From IMG/VR virus record IMGVR_UViG_3300050821_004803, positions 1,113-65,112 of that record: a stretch of DNA of 64,000 nt. One strand, given 5' to 3'. The stretch comes from a virus. Taxonomy: Duplodnaviria; Caudoviricetes. This document shows, in pieces, positions 9,725-63,797 of this stretch (positions are counted from its first letter, which is position 1; the number at the start of each line of letters is the position of its first letter). The notes below the pieces were generated by a model. That model ran no database searches and was not told where the DNA came from. It saw only the letters and a program-made list of their open reading frames with translations. Made by a program: the position numbers and the translations under genes.

Positions 9725-9725
9725 G

Positions 9726-10478: not shown

Positions 10479-11030
10479 ATGGCTGGAGTAACCAAACATT
10501 ATGTTTTGTTTTCCGCTGACGGGACTTTTTTGGACGTAAAAGCGCTTCCTCCGTTACAACACCTGATCGAGCGCCTCGCGGGGTTGTCTTTGGTTCGACA
10601 AGAATTTCCAGGTATTGTCCGAGAGGTACGAGCTTTATCGACTTCCCGCTCTTGGAGAAAGCGGCTTATCAAAACTTATGAAGTTTATAAGGTGCTTTGT
10701 ACTGCGACAAAAACCAAAGGCTGGAGACTGGCAGAGTACCGTGTTCGCAAGGGACGAGGACTGGGCAGCCACAGTGCCTTCAAGGCGATAGCCTCCAACT
10801 ATCGGGCTTTTTCCGTGCCAAAGAAAGCGGTAAGGGTTACGTTTGCTGATAACCCAAGAGCCAACCGTTGGACCCTTGACAACCCTTTTAACCCTGAAGA
10901 AGGGGTTCCAGAAGGAAATACCGGAACAGCGCAAACAATAACACCGCTGCCACGACATCTAGAGCCACAATTTAATATACAACGGTATATGTCGAATGTC
11001 CCCAGAACCGGAACAGGTCGCACTCCATGA
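10479..11030 (+). CDS. hypothetical protein
   Basis: Starts immediately after the ATP-grasp stop; 183 aa. Confidence 0.65.
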   Translation: MAGVTKHYVLFSADGTFLDVKALPPLQHLIERLAGLSLVRQEFPGIVREVRALSTSRSWRKRLIKTYEVYKVLCTATKTKGWRLAEYRVRKGRGLGSHSAFKAIASNYRAFSVPKKAVRVTFADNPRANRWTLDNPFNPEEGVPEGNTGTAQTITPLPRHLEPQFNIQRYMSNVPRTGTGRTP

Positions 11031-11383
11031 CAGATCGTTGGGATAGAAGAGTGGATTTCGCTTGCAGCAACGTTCTCAGTTACATCGAATCACGCAAAAT
11101 TGTATGCTGCAAAATACACGGAGCTAACCAACCCTTTTCTCTGGTGCAGGATTCAAGTGGATGGAGAAAAGTCTGCAATCAATGCGTTGAAAATTTCTTC
11201 AAAGAGATTGGGGTGCCGGTAAAACCAGAAGTTGTTGATGTGTGTTTTGAGGATGGCTGCACCAACGATGCTAACCCCGCCGCCCGATGTCTTCTATGCC
11301 AAGAGTTGTTTTGCAATATCCATATGACAGATGATTTTGTTTGTCAATCGTGTACAGAAAAGACCGACAATGGACTTACATGA
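11027..11383 (+). CDS. multi-Zn-finger hypothetical protein
   Basis: CKIH, CNQC, CFEDGC, CLLC, CNIH, CQSC. Confidence 0.65.
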   Translation: MTDRWDRRVDFACSNVLSYIESRKIVCCKIHGANQPFSLVQDSSGWRKVCNQCVENFFKEIGVPVKPEVVDVCFEDGCTNDANPAARCLLCQELFCNIHMTDDFVCQSCTEKTDNGLT

Positions 11384-11942
11384 GGCCCCAGGCCAAACCC
11401 CTCTTATAGGAGAGAATCCGGAAAATGCCCTCTACGAAACGTGGAAAAAAGCTTCTGAAGCTGCGCGTCCACCGATTGAGCAAGCGTTGGTTCCACTTCT
11501 ATATCGTCACGCATCCAAGGTTTGTTGGATGGTTCTTCATTCTAATCAGCCTGATTTAATTGGAACGATTATTAATGATGTGTTTCTTGGAATGAGAAAA
11601 TTTAAGGGGGACAGTCTTTTTTCTACTTGGGTTCACGCTCTTGCACTGTATCGGTGTAGAGCGGAACTTCGAAACATTCGACGCAGGAAAGAGGTAAACG
11701 GGATTGTTGATGGGGGTGTTTCGTATAGTGTGAGGGGTTGTCAAGAAACTTCTAGCGTGGTCCAAAATTTGGTGTCCAAGTTGGGTAAACGAGAACAGGA
11801 ATTGGTTCGATTAAAGATTGATGAAGGTTTATCTGACAAAGAAATAGCGGAAGTTCTTGAGCTTCATCCCGTTTATATTCAAAGACTTTGGAAGGCATTA
11901 CGAAAGCGATTGAGGTCGATGTATGGAAGGAAAGCTTCTTAA
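11370..11942 (+). CDS. ECF-type sigma-70 family RNA polymerase sigma factor
   Basis: Region 2 FKGDSLFSTWVHALA; region 4 HTH LGKREQELVRLKIDEGLSDKEIAEVL. Confidence 0.88.
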   Translation: MDLHEAPGQTPLIGENPENALYETWKKASEAARPPIEQALVPLLYRHASKVCWMVLHSNQPDLIGTIINDVFLGMRKFKGDSLFSTWVHALALYRCRAELRNIRRRKEVNGIVDGGVSYSVRGCQETSSVVQNLVSKLGKREQELVRLKIDEGLSDKEIAEVLELHPVYIQRLWKALRKRLRSMYGRKAS

Positions 11943-12975
11943 TTCGTTTCTGTTGGGTGCAGACCCAGAATTGATTCTTCTTGATCCGCCAGCGTTGATT
12001 AATGGCAGTCGAGAACACAAAGCTGGATATCATTATGGGTACGATCATGGTGGCTATGTAATTGAACCACACCCAAGTCCGAGTTTATCGGCGCGAACCG
12101 TGTGTGCGAATATCAAGAAGTCGTTGGATGTGATTTCCAATCGTTTTCCCTCTTATAGACTTAGAGCAGGAGCTTATTACCGCGACCCGGATCGTAGAGA
12201 TGTCACTCTTGGTGGTCATGTGCATCTTGATCTTCAACATCTTTCTGCCGCCCAGTTGAAAGCAATGGACATTTTTGCAACCTCACTTGAAGCCCTTGAG
12301 ATTCTTCCAAGCAAAGAAAACAAGTTGCGTTGTGGGAGCGGTCATGGATATGGAAAATTGGGGGATATCCGTGCTGAACACGGGCATGTAGAGTACCGAT
12401 CGCTTTGTTCATGGTTGTTTAGTCGAAAAACATCCATGCTCTGTATAACTGGTATTAAGCTGGCTGCGGTGGCTCCGGATACCGTCAAATCTGCGGATTC
12501 TTATACCAAACTTTTGCGCTGGTTCGAAGAATTTAAAGGAAAGGATGATGATGTTGATTGGATTCTGGATCGAGAGTATTTCGCGTCATCTTTGGAAGCC
12601 AAGCCAGACGCTAATGTAAAAGCGGTTTGGAAAGTAGACCCCGATAAAGCAAAGGAGTGGGAACAAGAGGTTGCGACAATGGTTCCAACCAATATAGTTA
12701 ACATGGCCGATCTTGAACGGCGGATGCTAACAGAGGATTATTTCCCTAGTGGAGTGGAGTATGAAGAAATTCGTCGTCGTTCTCGGGAGGGTAGTGAACG
12801 AGCAGCTACTCTATGGAGGTTAATTCATCGTACGGAGATTTTAAGGGCCGCCCGATACGCACAACAACCACTTGCGGCCACAAATAACAATAACATGACC
12901 ACAAATAACAATAACTTTGAAAATTTATTGGGCGGGATTCTACAAAACCCGGATCTATATACCGGTCGTCGTTAA
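11923..12975 (+). CDS. phiEco32-like COOH-NH2 ligase, copy 3
   Basis: LGADPELI, VIEPHPSP, TLGGHVHL, YGKLGDIRAEHGHVEYRSLCSWL. Confidence 0.85.
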   Translation: MEGKLLNSFLLGADPELILLDPPALINGSREHKAGYHYGYDHGGYVIEPHPSPSLSARTVCANIKKSLDVISNRFPSYRLRAGAYYRDPDRRDVTLGGHVHLDLQHLSAAQLKAMDIFATSLEALEILPSKENKLRCGSGHGYGKLGDIRAEHGHVEYRSLCSWLFSRKTSMLCITGIKLAAVAPDTVKSADSYTKLLRWFEEFKGKDDDVDWILDREYFASSLEAKPDANVKAVWKVDPDKAKEWEQEVATMVPTNIVNMADLERRMLTEDYFPSGVEYEEIRRRSREGSERAATLWRLIHRTEILRAARYAQQPLAATNNNNMTTNNNNFENLLGGILQNPDLYTGRR

Positions 12976-13033
12976 AAATTTTTCCGCATTTTTTGTGTGG
13001 AATTTGTATCATTTGTAACACTAATAGGCAGAC

Positions 13034-13315
13034 TTGATGAAACCACGAGCTTTCTCTAGGGGTACGGCTCTTAGAGTATTTTGGGTGGATTCTTCTCAAA
13101 CAGCGGGATGGAAATACGATGAAAACATTCCAGTTATGGTTGAGAAGATAGCCACCCTTGGTTGGGTTACGGATACGTCTTCTGATGGAATTAATATGAC
13201 TTCAACTCTTTCAAAACATGGAGGAGTTTTGTCATATATTTCAATTCCCTGGAAGGCCATAGTCCACATTCAAGAATTAAACGAATGGGATCGAGATGCG
13301 AATTTACCGCTCTAA
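13034..13315 (+). CDS. conserved phage hypothetical protein
   Basis: WVDS...GW...TLGW...IPWKAI pattern common in small phage beta-barrel proteins. Confidence 0.7.
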   Translation: MMKPRAFSRGTALRVFWVDSSQTAGWKYDENIPVMVEKIATLGWVTDTSSDGINMTSTLSKHGGVLSYISIPWKAIVHIQELNEWDRDANLPL

Positions 13316-13324
13316 CCGGATAAA

Positions 13325-14080
13325 TTGGCTCTCGCGGTATTAAGATTGGTATTTGATCGTTCTCTCCTCACATTTGATGCCGCCCGGCATCGACATCTCT
13401 ATGACGGTAAACAACTTATTGGTGTAACAACAGCCCTGGGGATGATATCTAAAGGGGATGCGATAACACAATGGGCGGTCAATCAATCACTCGAATTTTT
13501 GACAAATGCATTCGCGCAAGAGGGGGAATATGCGCCTGAGGAAATTCAGGCCTTCTTACTACAAGCTAAATATGCCTGGCGAGCTAAGCGTGATGAAGCA
13601 GCTGATATAGGCACTCAAGCCCACAACTGGATCGAATCTTATTTAAAAGGGGAGAACCCTGATCTTATTTGGCCAAAACATCCCGCTGTACGTAAATCTT
13701 GTGAAGCAGCAGTTAAATGGACGGAGGCCCATCATTGGCAAACAATTGAAATCGAGAAGCAAGTCTACCATCCAAAACTTGGGTACGCTGGAATTCTCGA
13801 CTGGTGGGTTTTCATTGATGGTGTACCCTCCATTCCAGACTGGAAAACTTCCAAAGCTATTTACAGCACCCATCGGTACCAAACTGCAGCCTATCTTAAA
13901 GCGGTTGAACTTGAAACCAGAGAATATATTCGTAACCGCTGGGTCTTGCGAATTGATAAATCTACTGGAGAGTTTGAAGATGTTAAGTTACAACGAGGTA
14001 CCTTAGCCGATGACTGGCGTTGTTTCAAAGCAGCCCTTGCATTATATAAACGTGAAAAGCAGTTAAAAGAGGAGAAGTAA
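13325..14080 (+). CDS. PD-(D/E)xK exonuclease-like protein
   Basis: GTQAHNWIE, EKQV, YAGILD, DWKTS, YQTAAY. Confidence 0.88.
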   Translation: MALAVLRLVFDRSLLTFDAARHRHLYDGKQLIGVTTALGMISKGDAITQWAVNQSLEFLTNAFAQEGEYAPEEIQAFLLQAKYAWRAKRDEAADIGTQAHNWIESYLKGENPDLIWPKHPAVRKSCEAAVKWTEAHHWQTIEIEKQVYHPKLGYAGILDWWVFIDGVPSIPDWKTSKAIYSTHRYQTAAYLKAVELETREYIRNRWVLRIDKSTGEFEDVKLQRGTLADDWRCFKAALALYKREKQLKEEK

Positions 14081-14307
14081 TGTCCCTAGAAAATCGTGAA
14101 TACGAAGTCGAATTGACTGTAACCAGGCATCATCTTTTTACCACGTTTTCTCGTTCTCCGGAGGAGGCTATTGCGGACGCAGAAAATATGTTAGAAGACG
14201 GCGATAATGGGGAAATTGTAGTAACTGAAATTGAAGTTGCTGACGCCTACCCTACTGATGAGCTTTCTTCCGAGGATGATGAGGAGATGGATGACGATAC
14301 CGACTAA
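14080..14307 (+). CDS. small acidic hypothetical protein
   Basis: TAATG coupling; AGGAG RBS; D/E-rich tail. Confidence 0.7.
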   Translation: MSLENREYEVELTVTRHHLFTTFSRSPEEAIADAENMLEDGDNGEIVVTEIEVADAYPTDELSSEDDEEMDDDTD

Positions 14308-15085
14308 TCCTGTACGTATTGGAGGGGTTGGGCCTGGGGTTATTGAATATAAACGAGTTAGCCAAGAACCCCCTAAACGTCTTGTCCTTTCTGTTGATAG
14401 TCCTCCAAAATGGGGTAAAACTCATTTCTGTTTGACCGCTCCAGATCCCATAGCCGTTCATAACCTCGATCTTGGCCTAGAGGGAGTGGTTGAGGCGGAA
14501 GAATTCAAGAGCAAAGAAATCTATGTCTTTGACTATCAAATTCCTATGTCCGCTACACTACCCGGCTCAGAATTTTCGGGAATGGCCGATGCTGCTCAGA
14601 AAGTCTGGAAGGAGTATGTACGCAATTTCCGAGATTCTCTGTCGAAAATGCGGACGGTTGTGGTGGATACAGGGTCGGAGGCGTGGCAACTTGTACGATT
14701 GGCTCGTCTGGGTAAACTCACCTCCGTACTTCCGGTACAATATACAGCAGTCAATGCGGAGTTCCGACAACTTACTCAGATCGCTTTGTCGCAAAACGTC
14801 TGTAATGTTATCTTTACTCACAAGGTAAAGGATGTATATAAGGATGACAAGAAAACGGGCGAGGTAGAGCGAGCGGGTTTTGGAGAAATAGAATACGATG
14901 TTCAAACTGTTCTTAAGGCTTCTAGGGACTACGCAAAGACCGGAGTTGACCAGTTTGGATTGGAGATCGCAGCATGTCGCGCCAATTTATCGGCCACCGG
15001 AAAGAGATTTGTTGGAGCAGATTGCACCTTTGCTAAGGTTGCCGCAGCAATCTATCCGTCCACAACCGAAGAAACCTGGAAATAA
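14291..15085 (+). CDS. AAA_24/Sak4-like P-loop ATPase (recombination/annealing)
   Basis: Walker A SPPKWGKT, Walker B VVVDT, VIFTH; lies next to the nuclease and SSB-like genes. Confidence 0.78.
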   Translation: MTIPTNPVRIGGVGPGVIEYKRVSQEPPKRLVLSVDSPPKWGKTHFCLTAPDPIAVHNLDLGLEGVVEAEEFKSKEIYVFDYQIPMSATLPGSEFSGMADAAQKVWKEYVRNFRDSLSKMRTVVVDTGSEAWQLVRLARLGKLTSVLPVQYTAVNAEFRQLTQIALSQNVCNVIFTHKVKDVYKDDKKTGEVERAGFGEIEYDVQTVLKASRDYAKTGVDQFGLEIAACRANLSATGKRFVGADCTFAKVAAAIYPSTTEETWK

Positions 15086-15098
15086 TTTCATTTTTTAG

Positions 15099-15129
15099 GT
15101 TGTATTAGTACCCATTTTGGATACTAATA
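15099..15129 (+). promoter_or_regulatory. putative phage-sigma promoter GTTGTA-N15-GATACTAATA
   Basis: Same bipartite motif and spacing at 56204-56234(-) and 58239-58269(-); this copy also forms the palindrome TGTATTAGTA/TACTAATACA. Confidence 0.75.
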
Positions 15130-15134
15130 CACAC

Positions 15135-15340
15135 AATCAACAGGAGACAAAGGGTTGTACCTGAGTTGAACGTTGATGGTCAACCTAAAGGGGTTAGAGC
15201 CTGGGTTGGTTGTGCGATAGAACCGGGAAGTCCTTGAAAATATCGGGAACTCCGTTCTGAGGGGTTCGGACCCGTGCCTGGCGAGGCTCCCAAGGTTCTC
15301 CTATCCAACAACCACCCAAGTTTCTAACCCCTTTATTTGT
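15135..15340 (+). ncRNA. putative rod-shaped ncRNA containing the complement of the dispersed motif
   Basis: 13-bp perfect closing stem 15186-15198/15323-15335 plus nested stems; no ORF; upstream promoter motif; contains AAGGGGTT-AGA-GCCTGG and GAGGGGTT-N9-GCCTGG. Confidence 0.7.
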
Positions 15341-15631
15341 TTGGAGATAGCTTTGGAGAATTTTATTATGAATACGATTATAGTCGTTATAATGCTATCA
15401 TCCTGGCATCTCCACCGGCACGCTCAACTACCTCCAGTTGAAGTACCCCCCACCATTGAGCAACAAAGAGAAGACTATGCCCAAGCACTGGGAGGATGTT
15501 CGTATCAAGACGGAATTTATTTCTTCTCTGGTAAAGATAAAGAAATAGGTATGTCTGATAAATCCTGCGGTGAGGCATATGAAGACTGGCGACATCGCAA
15601 TACACCAGCCGTTGTTATGAGCAGAGTTTAG
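15341..15631 (+). CDS. small membrane-anchored/secreted hypothetical protein
   Basis: Hydrophobic N-terminus (likely start 15368); two Cys. Confidence 0.55.
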   Translation: MEIALENFIMNTIIVVIMLSSWHLHRHAQLPPVEVPPTIEQQREDYAQALGGCSYQDGIYFFSGKDKEIGMSDKSCGEAYEDWRHRNTPAVVMSRV

Positions 15632-15638
15632 AGGTTCA

Positions 15639-15917
15639 ATGTACAGAACCAATCGCAGTATTTTGAAAGAAATTTTACTTGAGGTGAAAAATTTGTCAGC
15701 AACTATTGTAACTCGTGCAGCTTTCGATGCGGCTCTTACGGCTGCAGTAACCACCATTCAGACCGCCATCAGCGACCTGCAGGCCAAGATTGCTGCGGGC
15801 GGAGTAACGACTCCAGAAGATTTTACAGCGGAACTTACTACGCTTCAGGGACTCGTTAGTACGGCGACTGCTGCGGACCCCGGTCCACAGGCCGCTTCCA
15901 CAACGTCCGGCAGCTAA
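15639..15917 (+). CDS. Ala/Thr-rich helical hypothetical protein
   Basis: GAGG RBS; coiled-coil-like composition. Confidence 0.6.
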   Translation: MYRTNRSILKEILLEVKNLSATIVTRAAFDAALTAAVTTIQTAISDLQAKIAAGGVTTPEDFTAELTTLQGLVSTATAADPGPQAASTTSGS

Positions 15918-15983
15918 CTAAACTCCAAAGCTTTTATCCGATGAGCTTTATCAACGGAATATTGAACTAATTGGGAGCGCTCA

Positions 15984-16403
15984 TTGTCAGGAACAGCATG
16001 GACTGAAGTAGATTTATCAACAATACCCACAGATAATGCAATTATTCCGGAAGGTAAGTATACGTTTGAACTTCTTCCCGGAGCACGCTATTCAAAGTGG
16101 GATGCAGGACGTATTGAATTTGCAGGAAAGGTTTCGGGTGGCGAGTTTCCTAATAAGGTGATTTACTCTAGCTACCCCGATCCTGAAAAGGTAGGAAATT
16201 GGGTTCACGGAGTTTTCGTTCGTATGCAAAACGCTGCAGGTGAAGGCTATGAAATTGAACCCAACGAAGATCCGGTTGCTTATTTAAATCGTGTTGCTGG
16301 TATTCATTTTGTTGCAAAGGTACTTCATCGTACTTACGACAAAGATGGAGAAAGCGTCACCAAGGAAGACCTGAAAATTGGTAGCATTTCGCCAGTTAAG
16401 TAA
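15984..16403 (+). CDS. putative ssDNA-binding protein (DUF669-like)
   Basis: IPEGKY N-terminal motif, beta-rich, follows the nuclease and Sak4-like ATPase. Confidence 0.6.
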   Translation: MSGTAWTEVDLSTIPTDNAIIPEGKYTFELLPGARYSKWDAGRIEFAGKVSGGEFPNKVIYSSYPDPEKVGNWVHGVFVRMQNAAGEGYEIEPNEDPVAYLNRVAGIHFVAKVLHRTYDKDGESVTKEDLKIGSISPVK

Positions 16404-16424
16404 AGAACTGTGGATGATGACTTT

Positions 16425-16448
16425 GGGCACCTCCGGGTGCCCTTAGTT
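16425..16448 (+). terminator. GC hairpin, probable terminator
   Basis: GGGCACC-TCCG-GGTGCCC followed by TTAGTT. Confidence 0.45.
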
Positions 16449-16463
16449 ATAGGAGAGTGGTTT

Positions 16464-16574
16464 ATGTTGGATCATATTGGATGGGTCATTTGTTTCGTTA
16501 TTGTTGTAGTTGCGATTTTTTGTAGCAAAGGACGGTTTCCTGACGATGACGATCCCCAACACCCAGCCTGTTGA
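16464..16574 (+). CDS. 36-aa single-TM peptide (not in ORF track)
   Basis: AGGAG RBS; MLDHIGWVICFVIVVVAIFCSKGRFPDDDDPQHPAC. Confidence 0.5.
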   Translation: MLDHIGWVICFVIVVVAIFCSKGRFPDDDDPQHPAC

Positions 16575-16693
16575 ATGCGACTGTCAGTGTCATAAATTGC
16601 GTGGCCACAACCAAGTAACGTTTTGTGGTTTTTGTTGGACTTGTCACACCTATCGCGATAAACGCGGATTAATTAAATTAAGGGAGCCTACAG

Positions 16694-16825
16694 ATGCCGT
16701 TGAAGACAGGCAAGAGTCAGAAAGTAGTTAGTGAAAACATAAAAACCGAGATGGGTGCAGGACGACCGCAGAAACAAGCGGTGGCAATTGCGCTCAGTAA
16801 AGCTGGAAAGAGTAATAAAAAGTGA
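16694..16825 (+). CDS. conserved small basic phage protein (not in ORF track)
   Basis: [43 protein letters not shown] matches the widespread QKQAVAIAL phage peptide; GGGAG RBS; GTGA overlap with the next gene. Confidence 0.8.
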
Positions 16826-17469
16826 AAGTAGTTTGCATATCCGATACTCATGACGTTCACTATCCAGAACTTCCGGAAGGGGATATGCTGATTCACGCTG
16901 GGGACGTTTCTTTAAACGGAAGTCCCCAAGAAATTACGAGATTTTTAGATTGGTTTGAAAAACAACCTCATCGACATAAAATTTTTGTAGGTGGTAATCA
17001 CGACCGTTCGTTGGAGCAATACGGATGGGGATTTTTCGAGCGAAAAGGCATTACGTACCTCGAAAACTCCTCCACAAAAATTGAAGGTTTTAAAATATTT
17101 GGTTCTCCTGCCTCTCGTACCTTTGGTCACATCTGCGCTTTTATGCGAGAGGAAGAAGCCCTACGAAGACTTTGGCTGGGTCTTGATGGCACTCACGATA
17201 TAGTTATCACCCACAGTCCGGCCAAGTGGTTTAGAGATTCTGAAGCCGATGGTGTGCCTCTGGGCAGTGAATCGCTAGCAGAATTTCTTCGATACGCCAA
17301 TCCCTTACTCCACGTATGCGGACACATACACGGCGGATACGGACAAACGGAGCACAAAGGAACTCAGTACGTAAACGCATCGCACCTGGATGTTACGTAC
17401 CGAAAGTTCAATGCTCCTATTGTAGTAGACCTAGAAGATATAAAGAAAAAAATAAACTCCAGGCCCTAA
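16822..17469 (+). CDS. calcineurin-like metallophosphoesterase (239FB-like)
   Basis: SDTH, HAGD, GGNHD, ITHSP, CGHIH. Confidence 0.92.
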
Positions 17470-19883
17470 CCCCTCTGGGAGCCAACCTGAAAGTTTGTGA
17501 AATAGCGGCTTGTGCTGGGTGTCCGCTAAGAAAGAAAAATCCAGATGCTATATTTGTTCCTCCTCGTGTTGGCAGTAATCTTCGTTTGGAGATTGGTGAC
17601 TACCCAGGACGTGTCGCTGCAGAGCTTGGACATCCCCTTGGTGGTGGCTCCGGTGGCTGGCTCACGTCGATGTATTCTAAAGCCGGTCTTGAAGAAAAAG
17701 AAAACTCTGTCCTAAACGTAATTCAATGTAAACAACCCGAAGAGGAGTTTCCGAAAAATGAGCATGAGGCCATCGAGCACTGCCGAAAAGCCCACGTGGA
17801 ACCCTTCCTTGCATCCAAACCTTGGACTCGTGTTGATGTGTTTGGAGAATATCCGCTCAAATATATTCTCCAAAAGAATCTTGAAATCTCTAGATGGCGT
17901 GGAACTATTTTATCCGTACCAGCTCTCGACAATTCAAAGATTGCTATTCCTACCTTCCATCCTAGATATATCGCCAAAGATCAAGCCATGTTCCCGGTGG
18001 CGATTAATGATCTACGGAAAACGCTCACCGTTGAACCAGAATATTATAACATTTATCCCTCCCTCAACGATGTCAGACAATTTCGATCAACCCGCTTTGC
18101 TTTTGACATTGAAACAAATGGATGGACAAAAGAGATCAACATTGTTGGACTTTGTTCAGAAGATTATAGGGTAATAGTTGTACCATTTATCGGAGAGTAT
18201 GTTGACGAGTTACGACGCATATTTGCAAACGCCACAGAAGTCATTGGTCAGAATCTGGTTCAGTTTGACTTACCTGTGTTGGCTCACAATGGCATTTATA
18301 TTCGTGGCCCTGAAGAGTGTGTGGTATGGGATACGATGCTTATGCATCATCTACGCTTCCCAGTATTCCCCCACGATCTTGAGTTCATTGGCAAACAATT
18401 TACGAACAAAGGCGCATGGAAAGCCGATAAAGTTTCTTTCGAAACATATTGCGCGAGAGACGTTGATGTCACCTGGCGATCCTTTCATCCGCTTAAAGAA
18501 CTTTTGGTTCAAGCCGGTCTCTTAGATAACTATAAATATATCAGTTGGCCGCTGGCTAAAATTTGCAAATTGATGACCGATATAGGTTTATCCCGATCAT
18601 TCAATCGAATTGCTAAACTTCGGGATGAGCTACACGAAATTATCAAAGTACAAGAGGGGTTATTGCCTGGGCATCTTAGAACTTTTACTAAGTATGTAAA
18701 CAAGCGAAAACCGGCTCCCGAAGGTACAGTCAACGAAAAAGGCAGACTAGTTAAGTATATTTATGAGCCGGTAGCGGAGGTTGAGGTTCCTTGGCGGTCG
18801 TCGGCTGTCAAAATGAAATTCCTCTATGAGGAGCTTCGGGACGCTAAGGGTAAAAAGCTTGAAGTGGTTAAACACATCAAGACGAAACAACCCACAACCG
18901 ACAAAAATGCCCTTGACAAGTTGTATGTTCGTCATAAACTACCGGAACTTCGGGCACTTAAAGAGCTTCAACGCTGTGCCACACTGTTGCAGGGTTTTGC
19001 TAAAGAGGACTTAAAAGTAAACGATGTCTTACACCCATCTTTCAACCCCCACGGAACAGAAACAGGACGTCTTAGTTCGAGTGGTCCTAACATTCAGAAC
19101 CAGCCAAGCGCTGTGCGATATTCTTACGTCCCAAGAAATGCCGGAGGAAAGATTGTCTCGGTTGATTACTCGGGCATTGAAAACCGACTCGTTGCGGATT
19201 TTGCGAGAGATCGAAAACGTAGAGAGTGGTTCAAAGACATCAATTTCTCTGAACATAAATACCTAGCGGCTCTTATTGAAGGAATTGCTTATGAAGAAGT
19301 CGTCAAATCCAAGGACAAAGATTCTCCTTATGCAATGGCGAAAGTCATTGTCCACGGGTCTGACCGTCTCATGGGTGCTAAGAAAATTGCCGCCCAATAT
19401 GACCTTGACATTGATCGAGTAAAAGATTTTCAAGCAATTTGGAAGAGAGAAATCTCGGATACTATTGCTTGGCAATCCCGAGTAGGAGCAGAGGCTGCTA
19501 GGATCGGCTGGCTCTCTAACCCCTTCGGGCGTAAGTTGTGGTTGTGGGAAAGCAATTCAATAACTAAGGCGGTGTCGTTTATGCCTCAGTCCACAGCTGC
19601 TGATGTTATCTTTCGGGCTATGATTGCGCTTATGTATGAGCGCATTGGATGGCCAAAAGAGTGGGCATTAAAGATTGCACCGTACGTGGAATCGTTGCCT
19701 GAAGGGGTCCTACTGCTGGCCCAGGTACACGACGAATTGTTGTGTGAAACCGAAAATGCAGATCAAGTAAATCCTACACTAGAGGTTCTGGAACGGGTGA
19801 TGACGCAACCCTGGCCAGAGTTAAACGGGTTGTCCCTTCCTATAGGGAAGGCGTCAGGTGATTCTTGGGGAGATTGTGAATGA
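17316..19883 (+). CDS. polA: family A DNA polymerase with N-terminal UDG-like domain and 3'-5' exonuclease
   Basis: UDG-like CAGC, GDYPG, NVIQC, PTFHP; Exo DIET, NLVQFD, YCARD; Pol TGRLSS, DYSGIE, QSTAAD, VHDE. True start probably near 17487. Confidence 0.93.
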   Translation: MRTHTRRIRTNGAQRNSVRKRIAPGCYVPKVQCSYCSRPRRYKEKNKLQALTPLGANLKVCEIAACAGCPLRKKNPDAIFVPPRVGSNLRLEIGDYPGRVAAELGHPLGGGSGGWLTSMYSKAGLEEKENSVLNVIQCKQPEEEFPKNEHEAIEHCRKAHVEPFLASKPWTRVDVFGEYPLKYILQKNLEISRWRGTILSVPALDNSKIAIPTFHPRYIAKDQAMFPVAINDLRKTLTVEPEYYNIYPSLNDVRQFRSTRFAFDIETNGWTKEINIVGLCSEDYRVIVVPFIGEYVDELRRIFANATEVIGQNLVQFDLPVLAHNGIYIRGPEECVVWDTMLMHHLRFPVFPHDLEFIGKQFTNKGAWKADKVSFETYCARDVDVTWRSFHPLKELLVQAGLLDNYKYISWPLAKICKLMTDIGLSRSFNRIAKLRDELHEIIKVQEGLLPGHLRTFTKYVNKRKPAPEGTVNEKGRLVKYIYEPVAEVEVPWRSSAVKMKFLYEELRDAKGKKLEVVKHIKTKQPTTDKNALDKLYVRHKLPELRALKELQRCATLLQGFAKEDLKVNDVLHPSFNPHGTETGRLSSSGPNIQNQPSAVRYSYVPRNAGGKIVSVDYSGIENRLVADFARDRKRREWFKDINFSEHKYLAALIEGIAYEEVVKSKDKDSPYAMAKVIVHGSDRLMGAKKIAAQYDLDIDRVKDFQAIWKREISDTIAWQSRVGAEAARIGWLSNPFGRKLWLWESNSITKAVSFMPQSTAADVIFRAMIALMYERIGWPKEWALKIAPYVESLPEGVLLLAQVHDELLCETENADQVNPTLEVLERVMTQPWPELNGLSLPIGKASGDSWGDCE

Positions 19884-20182
19884 ACGTAGAAGTTGGTAAA
19901 GTGGCTTTTATGAAGACCAGCGACGAACCTGTTTTTGTGTTGGAGATTGATGGAAAGGTAGCCCGTGTTCGTAGACCGGTGCAGACAGAGGATGGGGTTT
20001 TTCATCGTACCGAAACCTTCGAACTCCGGGAGCTACATACGAAGAAGGCTGCGATTGTTGCAGAGATGGAACTTAATAGGTTTATGCTGGAACAGCGGGA
20101 TCAACTTGCCGATGAGCGACGTAAAGCATCAAAGGATGCCGGTGATCCCTTTTCGGAACCGAAGGAATCCTTTCTTAACTAG
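19880..20182 (+). CDS. hypothetical protein
   Basis: ATGA overlap with the polymerase gene. Confidence 0.7.
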   Translation: MNVEVGKVAFMKTSDEPVFVLEIDGKVARVRRPVQTEDGVFHRTETFELRELHTKKAAIVAEMELNRFMLEQRDQLADERRKASKDAGDPFSEPKESFLN

Positions 20183-21330
20183 TGGACCTCAACATCCCGG
20201 ATTGTCTACCGCATGATAGTTGGTTCCGACGTTGGATGGATATATGGCCCACGTCGGAATCACCTAAGCCATTTATTTTATTCTCTGCGATGGCGATGTT
20301 TGGGGCTTGTTTAGGAAGACGAGTTTGGTTGGATCAAGACATACATCAGGTTAGGCCAATGCTTAATGTGCTGTTGATTGGTCCCTCGGGAATTGGCAAG
20401 AGTACCGCTGTAAAAATTGCCAAACGTCTTCTTCCATACGTACCAGAAAGCCATCGTGCCCAGTTTATTGAGGGTGGGTCTACAAAAGAAAAGCTCCATC
20501 AGGATTTGCTAGATCAACCAAAAGCAATCTTATTTGCGCAAGAACTGGCAGCATTCTTTTCCAAAGAAAAATATAAGGAAAACCTGATACCATATGTCAC
20601 TAATCTTCTCGACTATGAAGACGTTATTGAACTTAGAACTCGTCGAGATGGTACTAGCCGTGTTATTGAACCTAGCGTTTCTATCATTGGTGGCTCTACA
20701 CTGGAGTGGTTGCAAAATATGCTTCCTGATAGCGCTGTCAGCGGCGGTTTTCTTGCACGTTTCCTTATTCTTAACGAGGATTCTAAGGGACAGAAAATTG
20801 CGAATCCTCATCGCTTGTTGTCAAGCCGTTCTAAGGCAGCACTCGAAGTAACTCGCAACAAAGTCTACTCGGACTTCTCCGATCTCTTCACAGTCCACGA
20901 AGGCAATATGGACTACGAAGATTACGAAGCTGCTGAAACCTATGCAAAGTGGTATAACGCCTATCAACCCGAAACTGGATATCTTGCTCCGTTCGCTGCA
21001 AGAGCTGGAGAGCTTATCCTCCGCTTGTCGATGCTCCTTGCTATATCATCCAGACGAACTACCATCTCAGCGACAGACATTACTAGCGGTATTGCGCTCT
21101 ACGCTTACGTTGCAAGCCGCCTTGGGCGAGTTGTTGTAGCGACTAATGTGCAGGGTAAGGTCGGTGAATTGGTCAGAAGTACGGTTAGTGGAGAGGGGTT
21201 GGGGCCTGGCTCTATTGTGGGCTTGCTCCGAGTTCAAGCTCCATATTCTGATATCGAAAAACACTTAGAGGGACTTATATACTCTGGATCTCTAACTAAC
21301 GAAGAAGGAAAGATCAGACATTCCGAATGA
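20182..21330 (+). CDS. DUF3987/YfjI-like P-loop NTPase, putative replicative helicase
   Basis: GPSGIGKST, ELAAF, SIIGGST, GGFLARF; position after the polymerase; no primase domain visible. Confidence 0.75.
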   Translation: MDLNIPDCLPHDSWFRRWMDIWPTSESPKPFILFSAMAMFGACLGRRVWLDQDIHQVRPMLNVLLIGPSGIGKSTAVKIAKRLLPYVPESHRAQFIEGGSTKEKLHQDLLDQPKAILFAQELAAFFSKEKYKENLIPYVTNLLDYEDVIELRTRRDGTSRVIEPSVSIIGGSTLEWLQNMLPDSAVSGGFLARFLILNEDSKGQKIANPHRLLSSRSKAALEVTRNKVYSDFSDLFTVHEGNMDYEDYEAAETYAKWYNAYQPETGYLAPFAARAGELILRLSMLLAISSRRTTISATDITSGIALYAYVASRLGRVVVATNVQGKVGELVRSTVSGEGLGPGSIVGLLRVQAPYSDIEKHLEGLIYSGSLTNEEGKIRHSE

Positions 21331-21381
21331 CGCAGGGCATTAAGATTACCCCCAGGCCAAACCCCTCAGAAGGATAAACTT

Positions 21382-22161
21382 TTGGCCAACAAACCGAATT
21401 TGTGGGTTTGTTTGTTCGACCTACACCACCCAAAGGTCCACAAACCTACTTGGAATGCTGCACTTGATTTTATTCAGAAGAATTCTAAGAAGATTGCTGG
21501 GGTCTACTTCGGTGGCGACCAGTTTGATAACTCGGAAATCTCCCACCATAACGCAGGTAAACCTCTCTATAAACCAACAGGGAGTTATGCAAAGAATACA
21601 GAATCCTTTGATAAGGATATTCTTTGGCCGTTAGAGAATGTTCTTTCCAAAGGTACTACAAAGATTTGGCAGATAGGTAACCATGACGATTGGGAGCTAC
21701 AGTTTGTCGAGAGCCACCCAGAATTTGAGGGAGCGGTGGAGCGTCCAATCCTTCTTAAGCTGGAGTCGCGAGGTTGGGAGATTATCCCTTGCGGCTCTGG
21801 TTATCAGCTGGGTAAGCTCACTCTTATACATGGGGAGACTCTTTCAGGGGTGGGTAATCAGGCTGCAGGTTATCACGCGAAAAAAGCCGTGGAGACTTAC
21901 TGTGGAAGCGTTCTCTACGGGCATATGCATTCACCTCAATCTTACACGAAGGTGTTGCCTCACCATCAGACAGATAAGTGGCAAGGAATCTGTGCCCCCA
22001 TATTGGGCGCGACCAATCCTGGATACCTACGTAACAGACCTACAGCTTGGCTCAATGGTTTCTGTGTGGTCGAGATGCAAGAAAACGGAAACTTCAACGT
22101 TTATTCCGTTGTGGTAGTTGGCGGAAAATTTAGCTTTGGTGGGGTGGTTTATGGAAAGTAA
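21382..22161 (+). CDS. metallophosphoesterase/nuclease
   Basis: DLH, GGDQFD, GNHD, HG, YGHMH, W.NGF. Confidence 0.85.
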   Translation: MANKPNLWVCLFDLHHPKVHKPTWNAALDFIQKNSKKIAGVYFGGDQFDNSEISHHNAGKPLYKPTGSYAKNTESFDKDILWPLENVLSKGTTKIWQIGNHDDWELQFVESHPEFEGAVERPILLKLESRGWEIIPCGSGYQLGKLTLIHGETLSGVGNQAAGYHAKKAVETYCGSVLYGHMHSPQSYTKVLPHHQTDKWQGICAPILGATNPGYLRNRPTAWLNGFCVVEMQENGNFNVYSVVVVGGKFSFGGVVYGK

Positions 22162-22552
22162 AAGACCACCCTTGACGGTGGCTATTGATTTTGATGGTAC
22201 TCTTTGTGATGCTTGCTTTCCGGATATTGGTACAATAAAAGAGGGGGCACGTGAAGCGCTTCAGTTCTTTAAGGATTTGGGCTATCGTATCATTATTTAC
22301 TCGTGTCGTACTTGCCATTGGCACCACGACATATTCGGTGGCAGTGTTGATGAACCCTCAATGGAACGGACAACAGTTAGGCAAATGGTTGCTTGGCTGG
22401 ATTCCAATGGTCTGCCTTATGATTTGGTGGATGATGGTAGCCGAGGAAAGGTTGTCGCCGATTACTACATAGATGACAAAGCTATACGATTTGACAATAA
22501 CTGGCCAGAGATTCAGTTTTTTGTAGGGGTGTCCCATGCCGCTTCCAACTGA
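22151..22552 (+). CDS. HAD-superfamily hydrolase
   Basis: AIDFDGTL, IYSCR, K.VADYYIDDKA. Confidence 0.85.
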   Translation: MESKRPPLTVAIDFDGTLCDACFPDIGTIKEGAREALQFFKDLGYRIIIYSCRTCHWHHDIFGGSVDEPSMERTTVRQMVAWLDSNGLPYDLVDDGSRGKVVADYYIDDKAIRFDNNWPEIQFFVGVSHAASN

Positions 22553-22901
22553 TCCAAAGGATCGAAAGAAAACCCCTCTTTGGTCTGGGTTAGTTAAATA
22601 TTTTCCAGATGCCCTTATTGCGGTATCTCAAGTATCCTACGCTGGAAATGAACAACATAACCCAGGCGAACCTCTTCACTGGGCGCGAGGGAAATCAATG
22701 GATCAAGAAGATACTTTGCTTCGTCATCTATGGGAAAGTGGGACAGTGGATATTGATGGACACAGACACTCAGCAAAAGTTGCTTGGCGCGCCCTTGCCA
22801 TGCTCCAACTGGAAATCGAACGAACCAGCGTTCCAGACGCAACCGGAACTAGTGAAGACCTGTCCCAGATGCTACTCCCTTTTGATGGAAAGTCGCTGTA
22901 A
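22536..22901 (+). CDS. dATP/dGTP diphosphohydrolase-like protein (DUF5664-like)
   Basis: FPDALIAVSQVS..GNEQHNPGEPLHW..KS....LLRH...H.AKVAWRALA pattern. Confidence 0.78.
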   Translation: MPLPTDPKDRKKTPLWSGLVKYFPDALIAVSQVSYAGNEQHNPGEPLHWARGKSMDQEDTLLRHLWESGTVDIDGHRHSAKVAWRALAMLQLEIERTSVPDATGTSEDLSQMLLPFDGKSL

Positions 22902-22960
22902 GCTTATTTGTTATACCTGTAACTTTTATTTGTCGTGCTCAGACTTTTACTAGGAGAAAA

Positions 22961-23305
22961 ATGAAACTCTACACCTTTGCACTATTTGTCGCATTTGCAA
23001 CATCTGCCATTGCACAAAATCTTCCCAGCACCCCAATCCCGGAACCTGCTCGTACTCAGATTGAACTAGCCATAACAAAGCTAGACAAAACTCAACTACA
23101 GGCGCAGGTTGTCCAGTCCCAAGCAAAAGCGGCTATGGACCAACTTCAATCGGATTTTGCTACCGAACAAAGGGCACTTAACGATCTGGTTGCTGCGGAG
23201 AAGAAGGCTCTGAAACTCCCCGATAATGCTGTGATGGACCAAAAAACTTTTACTTTTAGCGTTCCAGCAGCATCGAAGGCAGCAACACCAGAACTTAAGA
23301 AGTAA
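22961..23305 (+). CDS. secreted coiled-coil hypothetical protein
   Basis: AGGAG RBS; signal peptide MKLYTFALFVAFATSAIA. Confidence 0.7.
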   Translation: MKLYTFALFVAFATSAIAQNLPSTPIPEPARTQIELAITKLDKTQLQAQVVQSQAKAAMDQLQSDFATEQRALNDLVAAEKKALKLPDNAVMDQKTFTFSVPAASKAATPELKK

Positions 23306-23320
23306 GAGGGGTTTGGCCTG

Positions 23321-24256
23321 GTGCGTGGAACTATACACAATCTTCAGGCTCGGTTTGAGAATTACGTTGCACTAACGGCTTCTCAACCTACCAGTGTTCG
23401 ATATTCAAAGGCTTTAAATAACTTCTTTGACCATTTCACGGACAAGTTTGATCCGGAGGATTTCTCAAGGAAAGATATTGAAGATTATAAGATATATCGA
23501 CTTCGCGAGAAAGTCTCTTCCAAAACGGTCAACTACGAAGTTCAAGTAGTGAAGTCGTTCTGGAATTGGCTTGTGCGAATGGAGGCGAGTCCTTACAATC
23601 CTTGTACCACCACTAAGCGGCTGAAGGAAGTTGAGCCAGCAAAAAGATCGTTGAGCCTTGAGGATCAAGAGAAAGTGTATGAAGCAGTATCTACTTTTGG
23701 CTCTCCTTTGGATAATCTACTTGTTGGTCTTGCCCTTTCTACTGGTTTGCGGGCAGAAACTCTTATACGGCTCGAAACCGCGGATGTTGACTTTGAAACA
23801 GCTACTCTCCGAATTCCTGCCGCAAAAATGAAAGCCGGACGGAACCACGAGGTTCCAATCCGGCAGGATGTAATGGAGCTGATTAAAGAATTACCCGAAG
23901 GAAGATTCTTCAATGGTTACTCACGTACTGCACGTAGTTTATCTGACCGCTTTAGTCGTATCCTCCGTCGTAGCGGTATTTTGGGTCATCGCGGATTACG
24001 CACCGCCAGGAGATCATTTGCTACAACACTTCTTCGAACGGGTACGGACATCGGTCTGGTACAAACGCTCATGGGGCACCGATCCGTTCTAACGACTTCA
24101 CGATACTTAACTGTGGCTGATTCTGCTACGACCAAAGCTGCGATTGACCGTTTACCGAAGGGAGCTTCAAATGATTCACATGCTTCTAACCCTAACACTG
24201 TTGATGGTACCAACACCGAAACCACCGGAACCAACACAGATTCCACTATCAATTAA
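23321..24256 (+). CDS. tyrosine recombinase/integrase (XerC/D-like)
   Basis: TGLR, KMK, RTARRSFAT (HxxR variant), LMGH, TSRY; N-terminal core-binding domain. Confidence 0.9.
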   Translation: MRGTIHNLQARFENYVALTASQPTSVRYSKALNNFFDHFTDKFDPEDFSRKDIEDYKIYRLREKVSSKTVNYEVQVVKSFWNWLVRMEASPYNPCTTTKRLKEVEPAKRSLSLEDQEKVYEAVSTFGSPLDNLLVGLALSTGLRAETLIRLETADVDFETATLRIPAAKMKAGRNHEVPIRQDVMELIKELPEGRFFNGYSRTARSLSDRFSRILRRSGILGHRGLRTARRSFATTLLRTGTDIGLVQTLMGHRSVLTTSRYLTVADSATTKAAIDRLPKGASNDSHASNPNTVDGTNTETTGTNTDSTIN

Positions 24257-24395
24257 AACCGTCTGCAAACAACTGGATGGCTTTTACTCTGAAACCACGG
24301 GTATGTGTTATCTACCAATGTCTTTACCTCAACCAACCCCCGCGCCCCTTAGCGAGAGAACCGTATCGCTCGGTGCAGCAATGGGAGGTGGCTAG
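24171..24395 (+). CDS. small Pro-rich secreted hypothetical protein
   Basis: GGGAG RBS; hydrophobic N-terminus; two Cys. Confidence 0.4.
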   Translation: MIHMLLTLTLLMVPTPKPPEPTQIPLSIKTVCKQLDGFYSETTGMCYLPMSLPQPTPAPLSERTVSLGAAMGGG

Positions 24396-24586
24396 GCGGG
24401 TTTGCGCGGAACACCCAAATGCCGCAGTTTGGCTGCCTAGAACTCCCGGTAACTGGGAGCAGTTTGCTTGTCCTGATGTTATGAAAATTTACGATCCTGG
24501 TATTGACTTGATCGACCAGTACATCAAGATAGATAAGCTTATACAAAAGCCACCAGGCTAAACCCCTCTTTTAGGGACTTATATAC

Positions 24587-24615
24587 TTGACTTCCGTAAG
24601 GAACTCAGGTATCTT
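24587..24615 (+). promoter_or_regulatory. sigma70-like promoter
   Basis: TTGACT-N17-TATCTT, followed after 6 nt by the ATG at 24622 (leaderless). Confidence 0.6.
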
Positions 24616-24621
24616 TAAGTC

Positions 24622-24900: not shown

Positions 24901-24910
24901 ATCCCCTCTT

Positions 24911-63790: not shown

Positions 63791-63797
63791 GACTTCC

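Follow-up and report, generated by a model that had tools for sequence, protein, structure and literature searches.

No DnaG-type or AEP-type primase was detectable in the complete genome of a 65-kb podovirus-like soil phage, which has an integrase and encodes its own family A DNA polymerase and a putative replicative helicase, and we infer that its DNA chains are begun without a classical primase encoded by the phage. Such an absence, if true, is unusual, because Kazlauskas 2016 (PMC4889955) counted a primase gene in 98% of the dsDNA viruses that have a DNA polymerase gene. The window analyzed here, 64,000 nt in length (G000:C1:1113-65112), belongs to a record of 65,112 nt with a CheckV completeness of 100, and both ends of the contig carry the same unique stretch and a hexamer repeat. 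A preliminary description of the window had allowed for a primase gene outside it, but the remaining 1,112 nt held only ORFs of 89 aa or less.

Search for a primase

Domain searches assigned a primase to 0 of 70 ORFs with PHROGs and to 0 of 40 ORFs with Pfam, and six-frame scans of the genome with seven primase-related Pfam models gave no match at E ≤10. Models for DnaG, TOPRIM and the CHC2 zinc ribbon (PF13362, PF13155, PF08275 and PF01807) were among these, and as positive controls they matched in 9 to 14 of 14 reference genomes. The AEP-type models PF09250 (Prim-Pol), PF01896 (DNA_primase_S) and PF08708 (PriCT_1) were likewise negative. PriCT_1 scored 4.5e-12 on its phage N4 control, but the Prim-Pol model failed on N4 as well, whose gp43 reportedly holds an AEP domain, and the searches are thus not fully sensitive. 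Regular expressions found neither AEP motif II (sGxGxH) nor the TOPRIM pattern (E...DxDxxG). Nine of 10 large minus-strand proteins, and all 10 proteins of a further set, had no family match. Within the sensitivity of these tools, the earlier statement that the window has no TOPRIM/DnaG or AEP primase motif was borne out.

The replication module and its relatives

The module at 13325-21330 lies on the plus strand. It opens with a PD-(D/E)XK-type exonuclease, a recombination nuclease (13325-14080; phrog_298 exonuclease, E = 7.2e-33; no Pfam match), followed by a Sak4-like AAA_24 ATPase (14231-15085; PF13479, E = 4.6e-10 over residues 57-247; phrog_124, E = 1.4e-5). A 139-aa SSB-like protein with 17 homologues (15984-16403) had no family match by sequence and was assigned an OB fold from its AlphaFold (AF2) model (pLDDT 80.8), for which the top Foldseek matches were PrgE (3.5e-4) and Bacillus subtilis SsbA (5.9e-4). 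A calcineurin-like metallophosphoesterase (16822-17469; PF00149, E = 1.6e-12; phrog_1649) precedes the polymerase, and a second metallophosphoesterase (21382-22161, plus strand; phrog_221, E = 3.5e-14) lies beyond the helicase. A phage sigma factor gene is located at 11331-11942. The nuclease, AAA ATPase, non-coding RNA, SSB-like protein, UDG-PolA and DUF3987 protein that had been named from the sequence were all confirmed by Pfam, PHROGs, AlphaFold/Foldseek and RNA contigs.

The polymerase ORF (PolA; 17316-19883) probably has its real start near 17480, and joins a family-4-UDG-like domain (PF03167, residues 93-233), a 3'-5' exonuclease domain of the DNA_pol_A_exo1 type (PF01612, 259-389) and a DNA_pol_A family A polymerase domain (PF00476, 495-852). 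Its 239 homologues at E ≤1e-20 were mostly of 790-830 aa, spanning 92-93% of the ORF, with many on contigs of 60-72 kb, and the clade consensus retained GEAPG and HPAY in the UDG domain. A conserved 100-aa "middle" protein (19880-20182) is encoded next, its start overlapping the stop of PolA and its own stop overlapping the start of a stand-alone DUF3987 (MCM-like) protein of 382 aa (20182-21330; PF13148, E = 2.8e-16, residues 98-312), the putative replicative helicase. The 100-aa protein matched nothing in Pfam or PHROGs; it was modeled as four beta strands forming a barrel and one long helix (pLDDT 77.9), with no fold match at E ≤0.001. Homologues occupied the same place in a relative, L084 (47% identity), and in a more distant relative, G001 (47% over 59 aa), and in both the gene order was kept. 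The DUF3987 protein matched PHROG families named "DNA primase", but the best of these, phrog_3022, aligned over profile positions 382-668 of 788 only, which we read as the helicase part.

The opposite strand carries, as its next gene, one for a giant virion protein. An ORF of 1,864 aa had no PHROG or Pfam match and no RNA polymerase motif B by regular expression, and its nearest atlas clusters were the polyvalent-protein families LPD38, LPD3 and PBECR3; the product looks like a polyvalent virion protein.

Two cultured relatives, Polaromonas phage Tiera and Microcystis phage Mel-JY34, and the sequence vir526 combine PDDEXK_1 and/or AAA_24 with PolA and DUF3987-only proteins (418, 396 and 496 aa); in the two cultured phages the set comprises exonuclease, AAA_24, PolA and DUF3987-only helicase, as in the phage studied here. 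Six-frame scans for Prim-Pol, Toprim_2 and PriCT_1 matched none of the three, and no small ORF lay between their PolA and helicase genes. Among the few relatives examined, the primase-less module is thus a trait of the clade, and the cultured Tiera and Mel-JY34 could serve for testing the priming question.

An abundant RNA and a dispersed motif

Between the Sak4-like and SSB genes lies an abundant structured non-coding RNA at 15140-15345 (ends approximate), putatively on the plus strand. The metatranscriptome evidence for it consists of assembled contigs. The segment 15086-15345 folds at -99.7 kcal/mol versus -73.8±5.1 for shuffled sequences (z = -5.1). RNA-library contigs from two metatranscriptome runs covered 15177-15327 (depth 178.4) and 15151-15327 (depth 13.7), a 5- to 80-fold excess over the depth (2-5) at which other phage contigs were present in these runs. 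Fold and contigs together support the earlier call of a non-coding RNA. Rfam gave no match at gathering score in the window and none at E ≤5 in 14900-16900; there was no tRNA or tmRNA, and the RNA matched no Rfam family (6S, Y RNA, tmRNA, tRNA or others). Its core at 15259-15284 (plus strand) reads GAGGGGTT, 8-10 nt, GCCTGGCGA. The core was kept in L086 (1712-1738) and L097, and altogether in three related sequences, although the flanking stems differ.

Both halves of a dispersed 15-19-base motif are present in this core, as GAGGGGTT and GCCTGG, with an order and polarity matching those of the motif. The pattern GGGGTT-N0-3-RSCCTGG occurred 30 times in the window versus 0.02 expected, and a slightly looser pattern had 34 copies genome-wide. 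Mean spacing was 3.4 kb on one strand and 4.3 kb on the other. The preliminary description had noted sites every few kilobases on each strand, and these are real. Both strands were more evenly spaced than chance: the plus-strand G-rich set had a CV of 0.40 (none of 20,000 simulations was as even) and the minus-strand set a CV of 0.49 (P = 0.003). Orientation alternated along the genome (P = 0.004), and both properties held under a null that sampled sites from gene junctions.

Within and beside the module, copies were found at 14324-14337 (plus strand), upstream of the probable true start of the Sak4-like gene and with a counterpart at the matching place in L085; at 15190-15204 (plus), in the outer stem of the RNA; at 17459-17473 (minus), at the phosphoesterase/PolA junction; and, as a looser copy, at 18656-18670 (plus) within PolA. 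An inverted pair is formed by 21195-21209 (plus), inside the helicase gene at its 3' end, and 21352-21365 (minus), 22 nt past its stop codon. The junction copy and both members of this pair kept their positions in L084, and motif positions in general were partly kept in relatives of ~67% nucleotide identity. G001, whose exonuclease homologue is 37% identical, had neither the motif nor an RNA-sized gap, and no RNA at the locus. In Tiera and Mel-JY34 there was no long dispersed motif (top 13-mer counts of 2 and 3 versus 13 in the phage studied here). The motif is genuine and particular to this lineage. Since the two cultured phages show neither a detectable primase nor such a motif, primase absence and motif are not coupled, and the co-occurrence of primase absence with a dispersed motif, for which a survey had been proposed, fails in them.

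Our leading, if tentative, reading is that the motif is a gene-expression signal of the lineage, unrelated to replication. It would then be a site for a phage factor such as the sigma factor, a terminator or RNA-processing signal, or one of paired stems bracketing genes, and the RNA would be a regulator or a decoy with the same sequence. Position along the genome is consistent with this: 13 of 32 copies were intergenic (4.0 expected, a 3-fold enrichment), 18 of 32 were no farther than 70 nt from a gene boundary (6.9 expected), and a back-to-back divergent pair (58433-58474) occupies the 1-kb non-coding region between two gene blocks, the main divergent intergenic region. In G001, where the sigma factor homologue has just 28% identity, the dispersed sequence is another 20-mer, which shares GGGGTT and forms a comparable divergent pair (19478-/19846+). 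Inverted pairs also bracket the integrase cassette (23308/24553), the large terminase (54838/53022) and the lysozyme (46435/45678), and several sense-direction G-rich copies end in GTG, a plausible start codon. Against it, copies faced with and against transcription in nearly equal numbers, no second conserved element was present within 45 nt on either side, 19 copies were intragenic and in several reading frames, and the evenness on each strand exceeds what a preference for junctions gives. Even spacing and alternation fit a genome-wide, strand-specific DNA function better, as a purely gene-expression role predicts neither. On balance we rate a role in gene expression or at the RNA level, held with less than even confidence, above one in priming, which seems unlikely even when all replication-linked versions are counted. 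Beyond replication, the RNA, which is abundant, conserved and outside the known families, and the unusual statistics of the motif, even on each strand and alternating, merit study in their own right.

How DNA chains may start

For a phage that starts DNA chains without a classical primase, leading strands may begin in recombination-dependent replication, from 3' ends that the exonuclease, Sak4-like protein and SSB generate and pair, or alternatively from transcripts of the host RNA polymerase. Lagging-strand primers may be supplied by the DnaG of the host or by some non-canonical activity of the phage.

Conventional replication with a diverged primase among the unassigned ORFs is the best surviving alternative, though we consider it improbable. 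Candidates would be early ORFs of 170-200 aa, a 416-aa ORF (56721-57971) or a domain in one of the giant virion proteins. Most ORFs have no family, the failure of the Prim-Pol model on N4 implies that diverged AEPs escape such tools, and diverged primases that were missed are, beside non-canonical priming, one of the explanations offered for primase-less phages in Kazlauskas 2016 (PMC4889955). Speaking against a hidden primase, PHROGs, Pfam, all seven six-frame scans and the regular expressions were negative, and PriCT_1, which does detect N4 gp43, was absent here and in three relatives. Of the module ORFs, two were modeled, one as an OB fold and the other as a small beta barrel, neither of them a primase fold, and the 1,864-aa protein resembles the polyvalent virion type.

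A further step, which we think somewhat less probable again, would be sequence-programmed priming at the ~34 evenly spaced, strand-alternating motif sites, the classical primase having been given up. Either the DUF3987 helicase or the abundant RNA would open the DNA at the motif, and the first nucleotides would come from PolA with its 100-aa partner or from the processed RNA itself.

The first of these sources has a model in SCCmec elements, where, as described in Bebel 2020 (PMC7581432), the A-family polymerase CCPol primes de novo when bound by a small, largely beta "middle protein" (MP) encoded between the polymerase and a 3'-5' helicase, and the helicase binds a DNA sequence beside its own gene that is the preferred priming site. 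By analogy, PolA and the 100-aa protein might form a non-canonical primase-polymerase like CCPol-MP, with start sites, possibly the dispersed motif, picked by the helicase. The phage resembles the CCPol-MP-Cch2 operon in that a small beta-rich protein without known family is encoded between an A-family polymerase and a helicase, an order kept in L084 and G001; in showing no detectable DnaG/AEP primase; and in a specific sequence next to the helicase gene, the inverted motif pair at its 3' end that L084 retains. It differs in that CCPol belongs to the bare "TV-Pol" group without both exonuclease domains, whereas the phage PolA carries a proofreading 3'-5' exonuclease and a UDG-like domain, and in that the phage helicase is of the DUF3987 family and not the Primase_Cterm/D5_N type; the likeness to MP itself is known from gene order and a model. 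Moreover, if vir526, Tiera and Mel-JY34, which have no small ORF at this place, are primase-less too, such a pair would not be the general answer. We accordingly regard this version as quite improbable. Were priming non-canonical in any form, it would be a third way to start DNA chains in phages and might yield a useful primase-polymerase.

The least probable version, to which we give very little credence, is the original suggestion that the RNA anneals to the C-rich motif strand, perhaps through the Sak4-like ATPase, and offers a processed 3' end to PolA. The location and abundance of the RNA, the conservation of both motif halves in its core while the stems vary, the even and alternating arrangement of 34 copies, their partial retention in relatives and the joint absence of motif and RNA-sized gap from G001 are compatible with it, but the cultured primase-less relatives have no such motif, G001 has a different 20-mer and no RNA, pairing would be 8 + 6 bp with a bulge, and the contigs leave the RNA strand unassigned. 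The core is also internal, the apparent end of the RNA at 15327 being ~45 nt away, so that the RNA could prime only once cut. In ColE1 RNA II and the T7 origin transcripts, an RNA made by RNA polymerase is processed and gives a 3' end to a family A polymerase, as could happen here. These transcripts act in cis at one origin, whereas the phage would need one RNA in trans at ~34 sites, and we know of no trans-acting primer RNA.

Comparison with known systems

Taken as a whole, the module might be an N4-type replication-recombination set minus N4's primase domain, a reading to which we give slightly less than even weight. The N4 record lists gp39 (DNAP), gp42 (exonuclease), gp43 (primase, the "dns" helicase-primase), gp44 (Sak4-like) and gp45 (SSB), and as in the phage studied here, exonuclease, Sak4-like ATPase and SSB accompany the polymerase. 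Both also have a PolA with an N-terminal UDG-family domain, described for N4-like PolAs in Missoury 2026 (PMC13697223), a DUF3987 helicase, and a giant virion protein as the product of the next opposite-strand gene. DUF3987 is presented in Kazlauskas 2016 (PMC4889955) as an MCM-related replicative helicase often fused to or adjoining a primase, and N4 dns as a helicase with a C-terminal AEP; in our scans gp43 comprised DUF3987 (39-376) and PriCT_1 (652-705). It is this C-terminal AEP/PriCT_1 part that the phage helicase does not have. The gene order also differs, phmmer with 11 N4 proteins against the six-frame ORFs found only PolA below E = 0.01 (8.5e-6), the 1,864-aa protein carries no virion RNA polymerase signature, and the UDG domain of the clade keeps GEAPG and HPAY, whereas the catalytic residues are reportedly gone from the UDG domains of the N4-like type.

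[quoted passage not shown] Like them, the phage studied here combines its own DNA polymerase and helicase with no detectable primase, but it belongs to another clade, and its small genome of 65 kb has an evenly spaced motif as well as an abundant RNA encoded among the replication genes.

Replication module and primase search

Pfam and PHROGs searches bore out the gene set described for positions 13325-21330, identifying an exonuclease (13325-14080; phrog_298, E 7e-33), an AAA_24/Sak4-like ATPase (14231-15085), a metallophosphoesterase (16822-17469), a single ORF with UDG, 3'-5' exonuclease and family A polymerase (PolA) domains (17316-19883) and a 382-aa DUF3987 protein (20182-21330), with a second phosphoesterase at 21382-22161. 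The 139-aa ORF at 15984-16403 matched no Pfam or PHROG family; it had 17 homologues, and its predicted fold (pLDDT 80.8) best matched SSB-type OB folds among known structures, the four matches at E<=0.001 being two PrgE chains and two B. subtilis SsbA entries, which supports its earlier labelling as an SSB-like protein. For the PolA ORF, 239 homologues were found at E<=1e-20; among the 120 listed, all shared at least 43% identity, most were 790-830 aa long and many lay on 60-72 kb contigs. As these homologues span 92-93% of the ORF, translation probably starts near 17480. The UDG motifs GEAPG and HPAY were kept in the clade consensus, with GDYPG in the present phage. Between the SSB-like gene and the first phosphoesterase was a 73-aa cysteine-rich ORF (16510-16731; CDCQCH ... 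CGFCWTCH), which had no match in a PHROG search and may bind zinc. Further downstream lay a HAD-like phosphatase (22118-22552) and a phrog_27780 member (22536-22901).

A caveat in the preliminary description, about genome sequence lying beyond the window, carries little weight. The source record was 65,112 nt long with a CheckV completeness of 100%, the window being its bases 1113-65112, and a unique stretch plus a GGTCTK hexamer repeat was present at both record ends, indicating that the contig wraps around. The 1112 bases outside the window held no ORF longer than 89 aa. The GGTCTK tandem array spanned 63787-64000 and genome positions 30-120, where the contig ends overlap, with eight overlapping 88-nt copies reported; the assembly probably broke inside it.

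The earlier reading that no TOPRIM/DnaG or AEP primase signature is present held in a narrower wording. In searches of PHROGs with 70 ORFs and Pfam with 40 ORFs, 'DNA primase' names arose from the DUF3987 protein alone, and the best such family, phrog_3022, was aligned only at profile positions 382-668 of 788, which we take to be the helicase portion of proteins that fuse primase and helicase. The whole genome, scanned in six frames with seven models (Prim-Pol, DNA_primase_S, PriCT_1, Toprim_2, Toprim_3, DNAG_N and the DnaG zinc ribbon), returned no match at E<=10, while control genomes gave signal, and no AEP motif II or TOPRIM pattern was picked up by crude regular expressions. An atlas search with a 416-aa ORF gave no usable match. 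Prim-Pol and Toprim_2 scans also returned no match in phage N4, although its gp43 is reported to carry a C-terminal AEP (Kazlauskas et al. 2016, PMC4889955), and for this reason the defensible wording is 'no recognisable primase' rather than 'no primase'.

Three database phages, vir526 and the cultured Polaromonas phage Tiera and Microcystis phage Mel-JY34, matched PolA and DUF3987 by tblastn. They encoded DUF3987-only proteins of 496, 418 and 396 aa, respectively, as well as PDDEXK_1 nucleases and AAA_24 ATPases, and gave no match in three six-frame primase scans. In blastp of the present phage's ORFs against vir526 and Tiera, only PolA and DUF3987 matched. The module was also found in G001, a more distant complete relative of 67 kb (identities: TerL 54%, MCP 64%, PolA 47%, DUF3987 46%), where regular expressions found no TOPRIM pattern and two short glycine-rich AEP-pattern matches, both without an upstream DxD. 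A module without a recognisable primase is thus common to the few relatives examined, two cultured phages among them.

An abundant RNA within the module

The preliminary description placed a non-coding RNA inside the module, and both folding and expression agreed. Downstream of the Sak4-like gene, a 280-nt gap folded at -99.7 kcal/mol compared to -73.8±5.1 for shuffled sequences, its opposite strand folding about equally well, and neither Rfam nor a tRNA search gave a match. Contigs lying exactly on this element were present in two soil metatranscriptome runs belonging to different studies of a single year: in one, a contig at 15177-15327 had a depth of 178.4 compared to 2-5 for the six other phage contigs of that run, and in the other, a contig at 15151-15327 had a depth of 13.7 compared to ~2.5 for the two others. 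The comparison covered 9000-28999, and stretches without a contig carry no meaning. This 5- to 80-fold excess is beyond what DNA carry-over can explain. Both contigs ended at 15327, a strand-blind contig bound that may differ from the true RNA end. A -35/-10 pair read by eye upstream of the RNA is a candidate promoter; a promoter/terminator scan of 14800-15700 did not pick it up and found no terminator.

Homologues of the element followed the Sak4-like gene in two related sequences, L086 and L097, with differing stems and a retained core (CTGAGGGGTT, 8-10 nt, GTGCCTGGCGAGG, then CCCAAG). A consensus fold of the three had poorly aligned flanks and a covariation term of +1.68 and gave no support for the fold, covariation with three sequences being uninformative. 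A looser core pattern found 28 loci in viral contigs, one of which (L097) was a true relative, and a gap of this kind was absent from the locus in G001. In L086, an ORF resembling HNH/AP2-type homing endonucleases by eye was inserted directly after the element (~1870-2400).

A dispersed, evenly spaced motif

The genome carried a dispersed two-part motif, (A)GAGGGGTT, 0-3 nt, GGCCTGG, with 30 copies under the strict pattern against 0.02 expected; a looser one gave 34 across the genome, 32 of them in the window. Copies occurred in both orientations, and their flanks (45 nt each side) held no further conserved element. An origin as a host repeat was rejected: the exact 17-mer was absent from viral contigs and had 79 single matches in genome contigs, where our own rough estimate for chance is ~70. 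A role as recombinase (shufflon-like) sites was unsupported, as cross-placed pieces of DNA contigs were short motif matches only, with no rearranged junctions.

Four of the five copies at 17459-23308 had counterparts in the related sequence L084 (~67% identical; our mapping of the alignment), and copies 11388 and 14324 were retained in L097 and a further related sequence, L085, respectively. None of these copies was found in G001, which had a dispersed 20-mer of its own (CCTACCTAAAAAGGGGTTCA; nine copies in both orientations, including a divergent pair at 19478/19846) sharing GGGGTT alone with the motif; the longer form was present at 9 of its 11 AAAGGGGTT sites. The phage's ECF-like sigma factor (11331-11942; phrog_1740, E 5.6e-7; Sigma70_r4_2), only 28% identical to its G001 homologue, is a candidate reader of this lineage-specific motif. 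A tyrosine integrase gene (23321-24256; phrog_1, E 8.7e-44) and a 94-aa ORF were bracketed exactly by inverted copies at 23308(+) and 24553(-) (region 23308-24566), and in G001 a copy of its own motif also lay just upstream of the integrase homologue.

Several features of the motif would be explained at least as well by a signal for gene expression or RNA processing as by the priming sites proposed in the preliminary description: 13 of 32 copies were intergenic (4.0 expected) and 18 of 32 lay no more than 70 nt from a gene boundary (6.9 expected), inverted pairs bracketed single genes, and a divergent back-to-back pair was present at 58433/58462. Genic copies occupied several reading frames. 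Spacing favours priming: the plus-strand G-rich set (n=19) had a coefficient of variation of 0.40 compared to 0.93±0.19 for random placement, with none of 20,000 simulations equally even, and the other-strand set (n=15) one of 0.49 (P 0.003). Against a null drawn from gene junctions the evenness persisted (0/20,000 and P 7e-4), and orientation changed 26 times around the circle (17.3 expected, P 0.004). Even spacing on each strand and alternating orientation point to a genome-wide, strand-specific DNA function. Even so, we consider replication-linked readings of the motif, taken together, unlikely. The back-to-back pair adjoined a perfect 19-nt inverted repeat (58281-58299/58410-58428) around a 110-nt AT-rich stretch, in a 1-kb non-coding region between divergent gene blocks; 58281-58428 is a candidate for an origin or for a divergent promoter region.

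Possible routes to chain initiation

Primases are carried by 98% of polymerase-encoding dsDNA viruses, and for the few exceptions named, either the primase was missed or priming is non-canonical (Kazlauskas et al. 2016, PMC4889955). Of the routes considered, we rank highest one in which chains would start without a classical phage primase, through recombination-dependent replication and host functions or through a non-canonical phage activity; this may well be the case, though we put it somewhat short of an even chance. A hidden, diverged primase ranks second and seems improbable: Prim-Pol and Toprim_2 can miss such a protein, as in N4, but PriCT_1, which detects N4 gp43 (4.5e-12), had no match here.

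Third, and more doubtful still, PolA and a small protein might together act as a primase, by analogy with the SCCmec operon CCPol-MP-Cch2, in which an A-family polymerase turns primase on association with MP, a small, mostly beta 'middle protein', and the helicase binds a sequence adjoining its own gene at which priming is also favoured (Bebel et al. 2020, PMC7581432). The likeness is one of architecture only: a 100-aa ORF (19880-20182) begins at the PolA stop codon and overlaps the helicase start with its own stop. It had homologues at the equivalent position in L084 (47% identity) and G001 (47% over 59 aa) and no family in Pfam or PHROGs. Modelled from an alignment of three sequences only (pLDDT 77.9), it showed a long helix plus four beta strands and had no PDB match at E<=0.001, the top rows being SH3-like barrels that bind nucleic acids. 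A predicted complex of PolA residues 56-855 (36-row alignment) with this protein (3-row alignment) scored 0.00, which counts neither way. In contrast to the present PolA with its 3'-5' exonuclease, CCPol has no exonuclease domain; the two helicases belong to different families, and no such small ORF was found in vir526, Tiera or Mel-JY34.

Least probable is that the abundant RNA supplies a primer at motif sites, despite the negative primase search, the location of its gene within the module and the presence of both motif halves, in order, in its core. Within the RNA, the motif-like core occupies an internal position, and no long dispersed motif is present in either Tiera or Mel-JY34, both cultured and lacking a recognisable primase, so a missing primase needs no motif as its explanation.

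Comparison with N4 and other podoviruses

Outside the module, the phage encoded three phiEco32-type COOH-NH2 ligases (2968-4305, 7172-8671 and 11923-12975), clustered with a gamma-glutamyl cyclotransferase (5016-5354), a glutamine amidotransferase (8672-9724) and a RimK/ATP-grasp-like protein (9726-10478); with the UDG-fused PolA, this cluster and the HAD-like phosphatase and phrog_27780 member further downstream might hint at DNA or metabolite modification. Together with an SU10-type adaptor protein (35604-36257, minus strand; PF24175, E 2.9e-9), the ligases connect the phage's virion and early genes with podoviruses of the phiEco32/SU10 kind. A 1864-aa protein (24911-30505, minus strand) had no Pfam or PHROG match, and we rejected it as a virion RNA polymerase with the motif as its promoters. 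Its nearest atlas clusters contained the polyvalent-protein families LPD38, LPD3, PBECR3 and MuF_C, and it probably represents a multi-domain virion protein that is ejected; Tiera and Mel-JY34 encoded giants of ~1845 and ~1894 aa at the matching position.

In N4, the same functions are encoded by DNAP gp39, exonuclease gp42, primase gp43, Sak4-like gp44 and SSB gp45, with the giant virion protein gene next on the opposite strand. When 11 N4 proteins were compared with six-frame ORFs of the present genome (phmmer), PolA alone matched at E<0.01; an N-terminal UDG domain is carried by N4-like PolAs (Missoury et al. 2026, PMC13697223). DUF3987 is a replicative helicase related to MCM and is often found fused to or adjoining a primase (Kazlauskas et al. 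2016, PMC4889955), and whereas N4 gp43 combines DUF3987 with PriCT_1, the helicase here consists of DUF3987 alone. On gene content, the module is a new form of the N4-type replication-recombination module, without a recognisable primase part.
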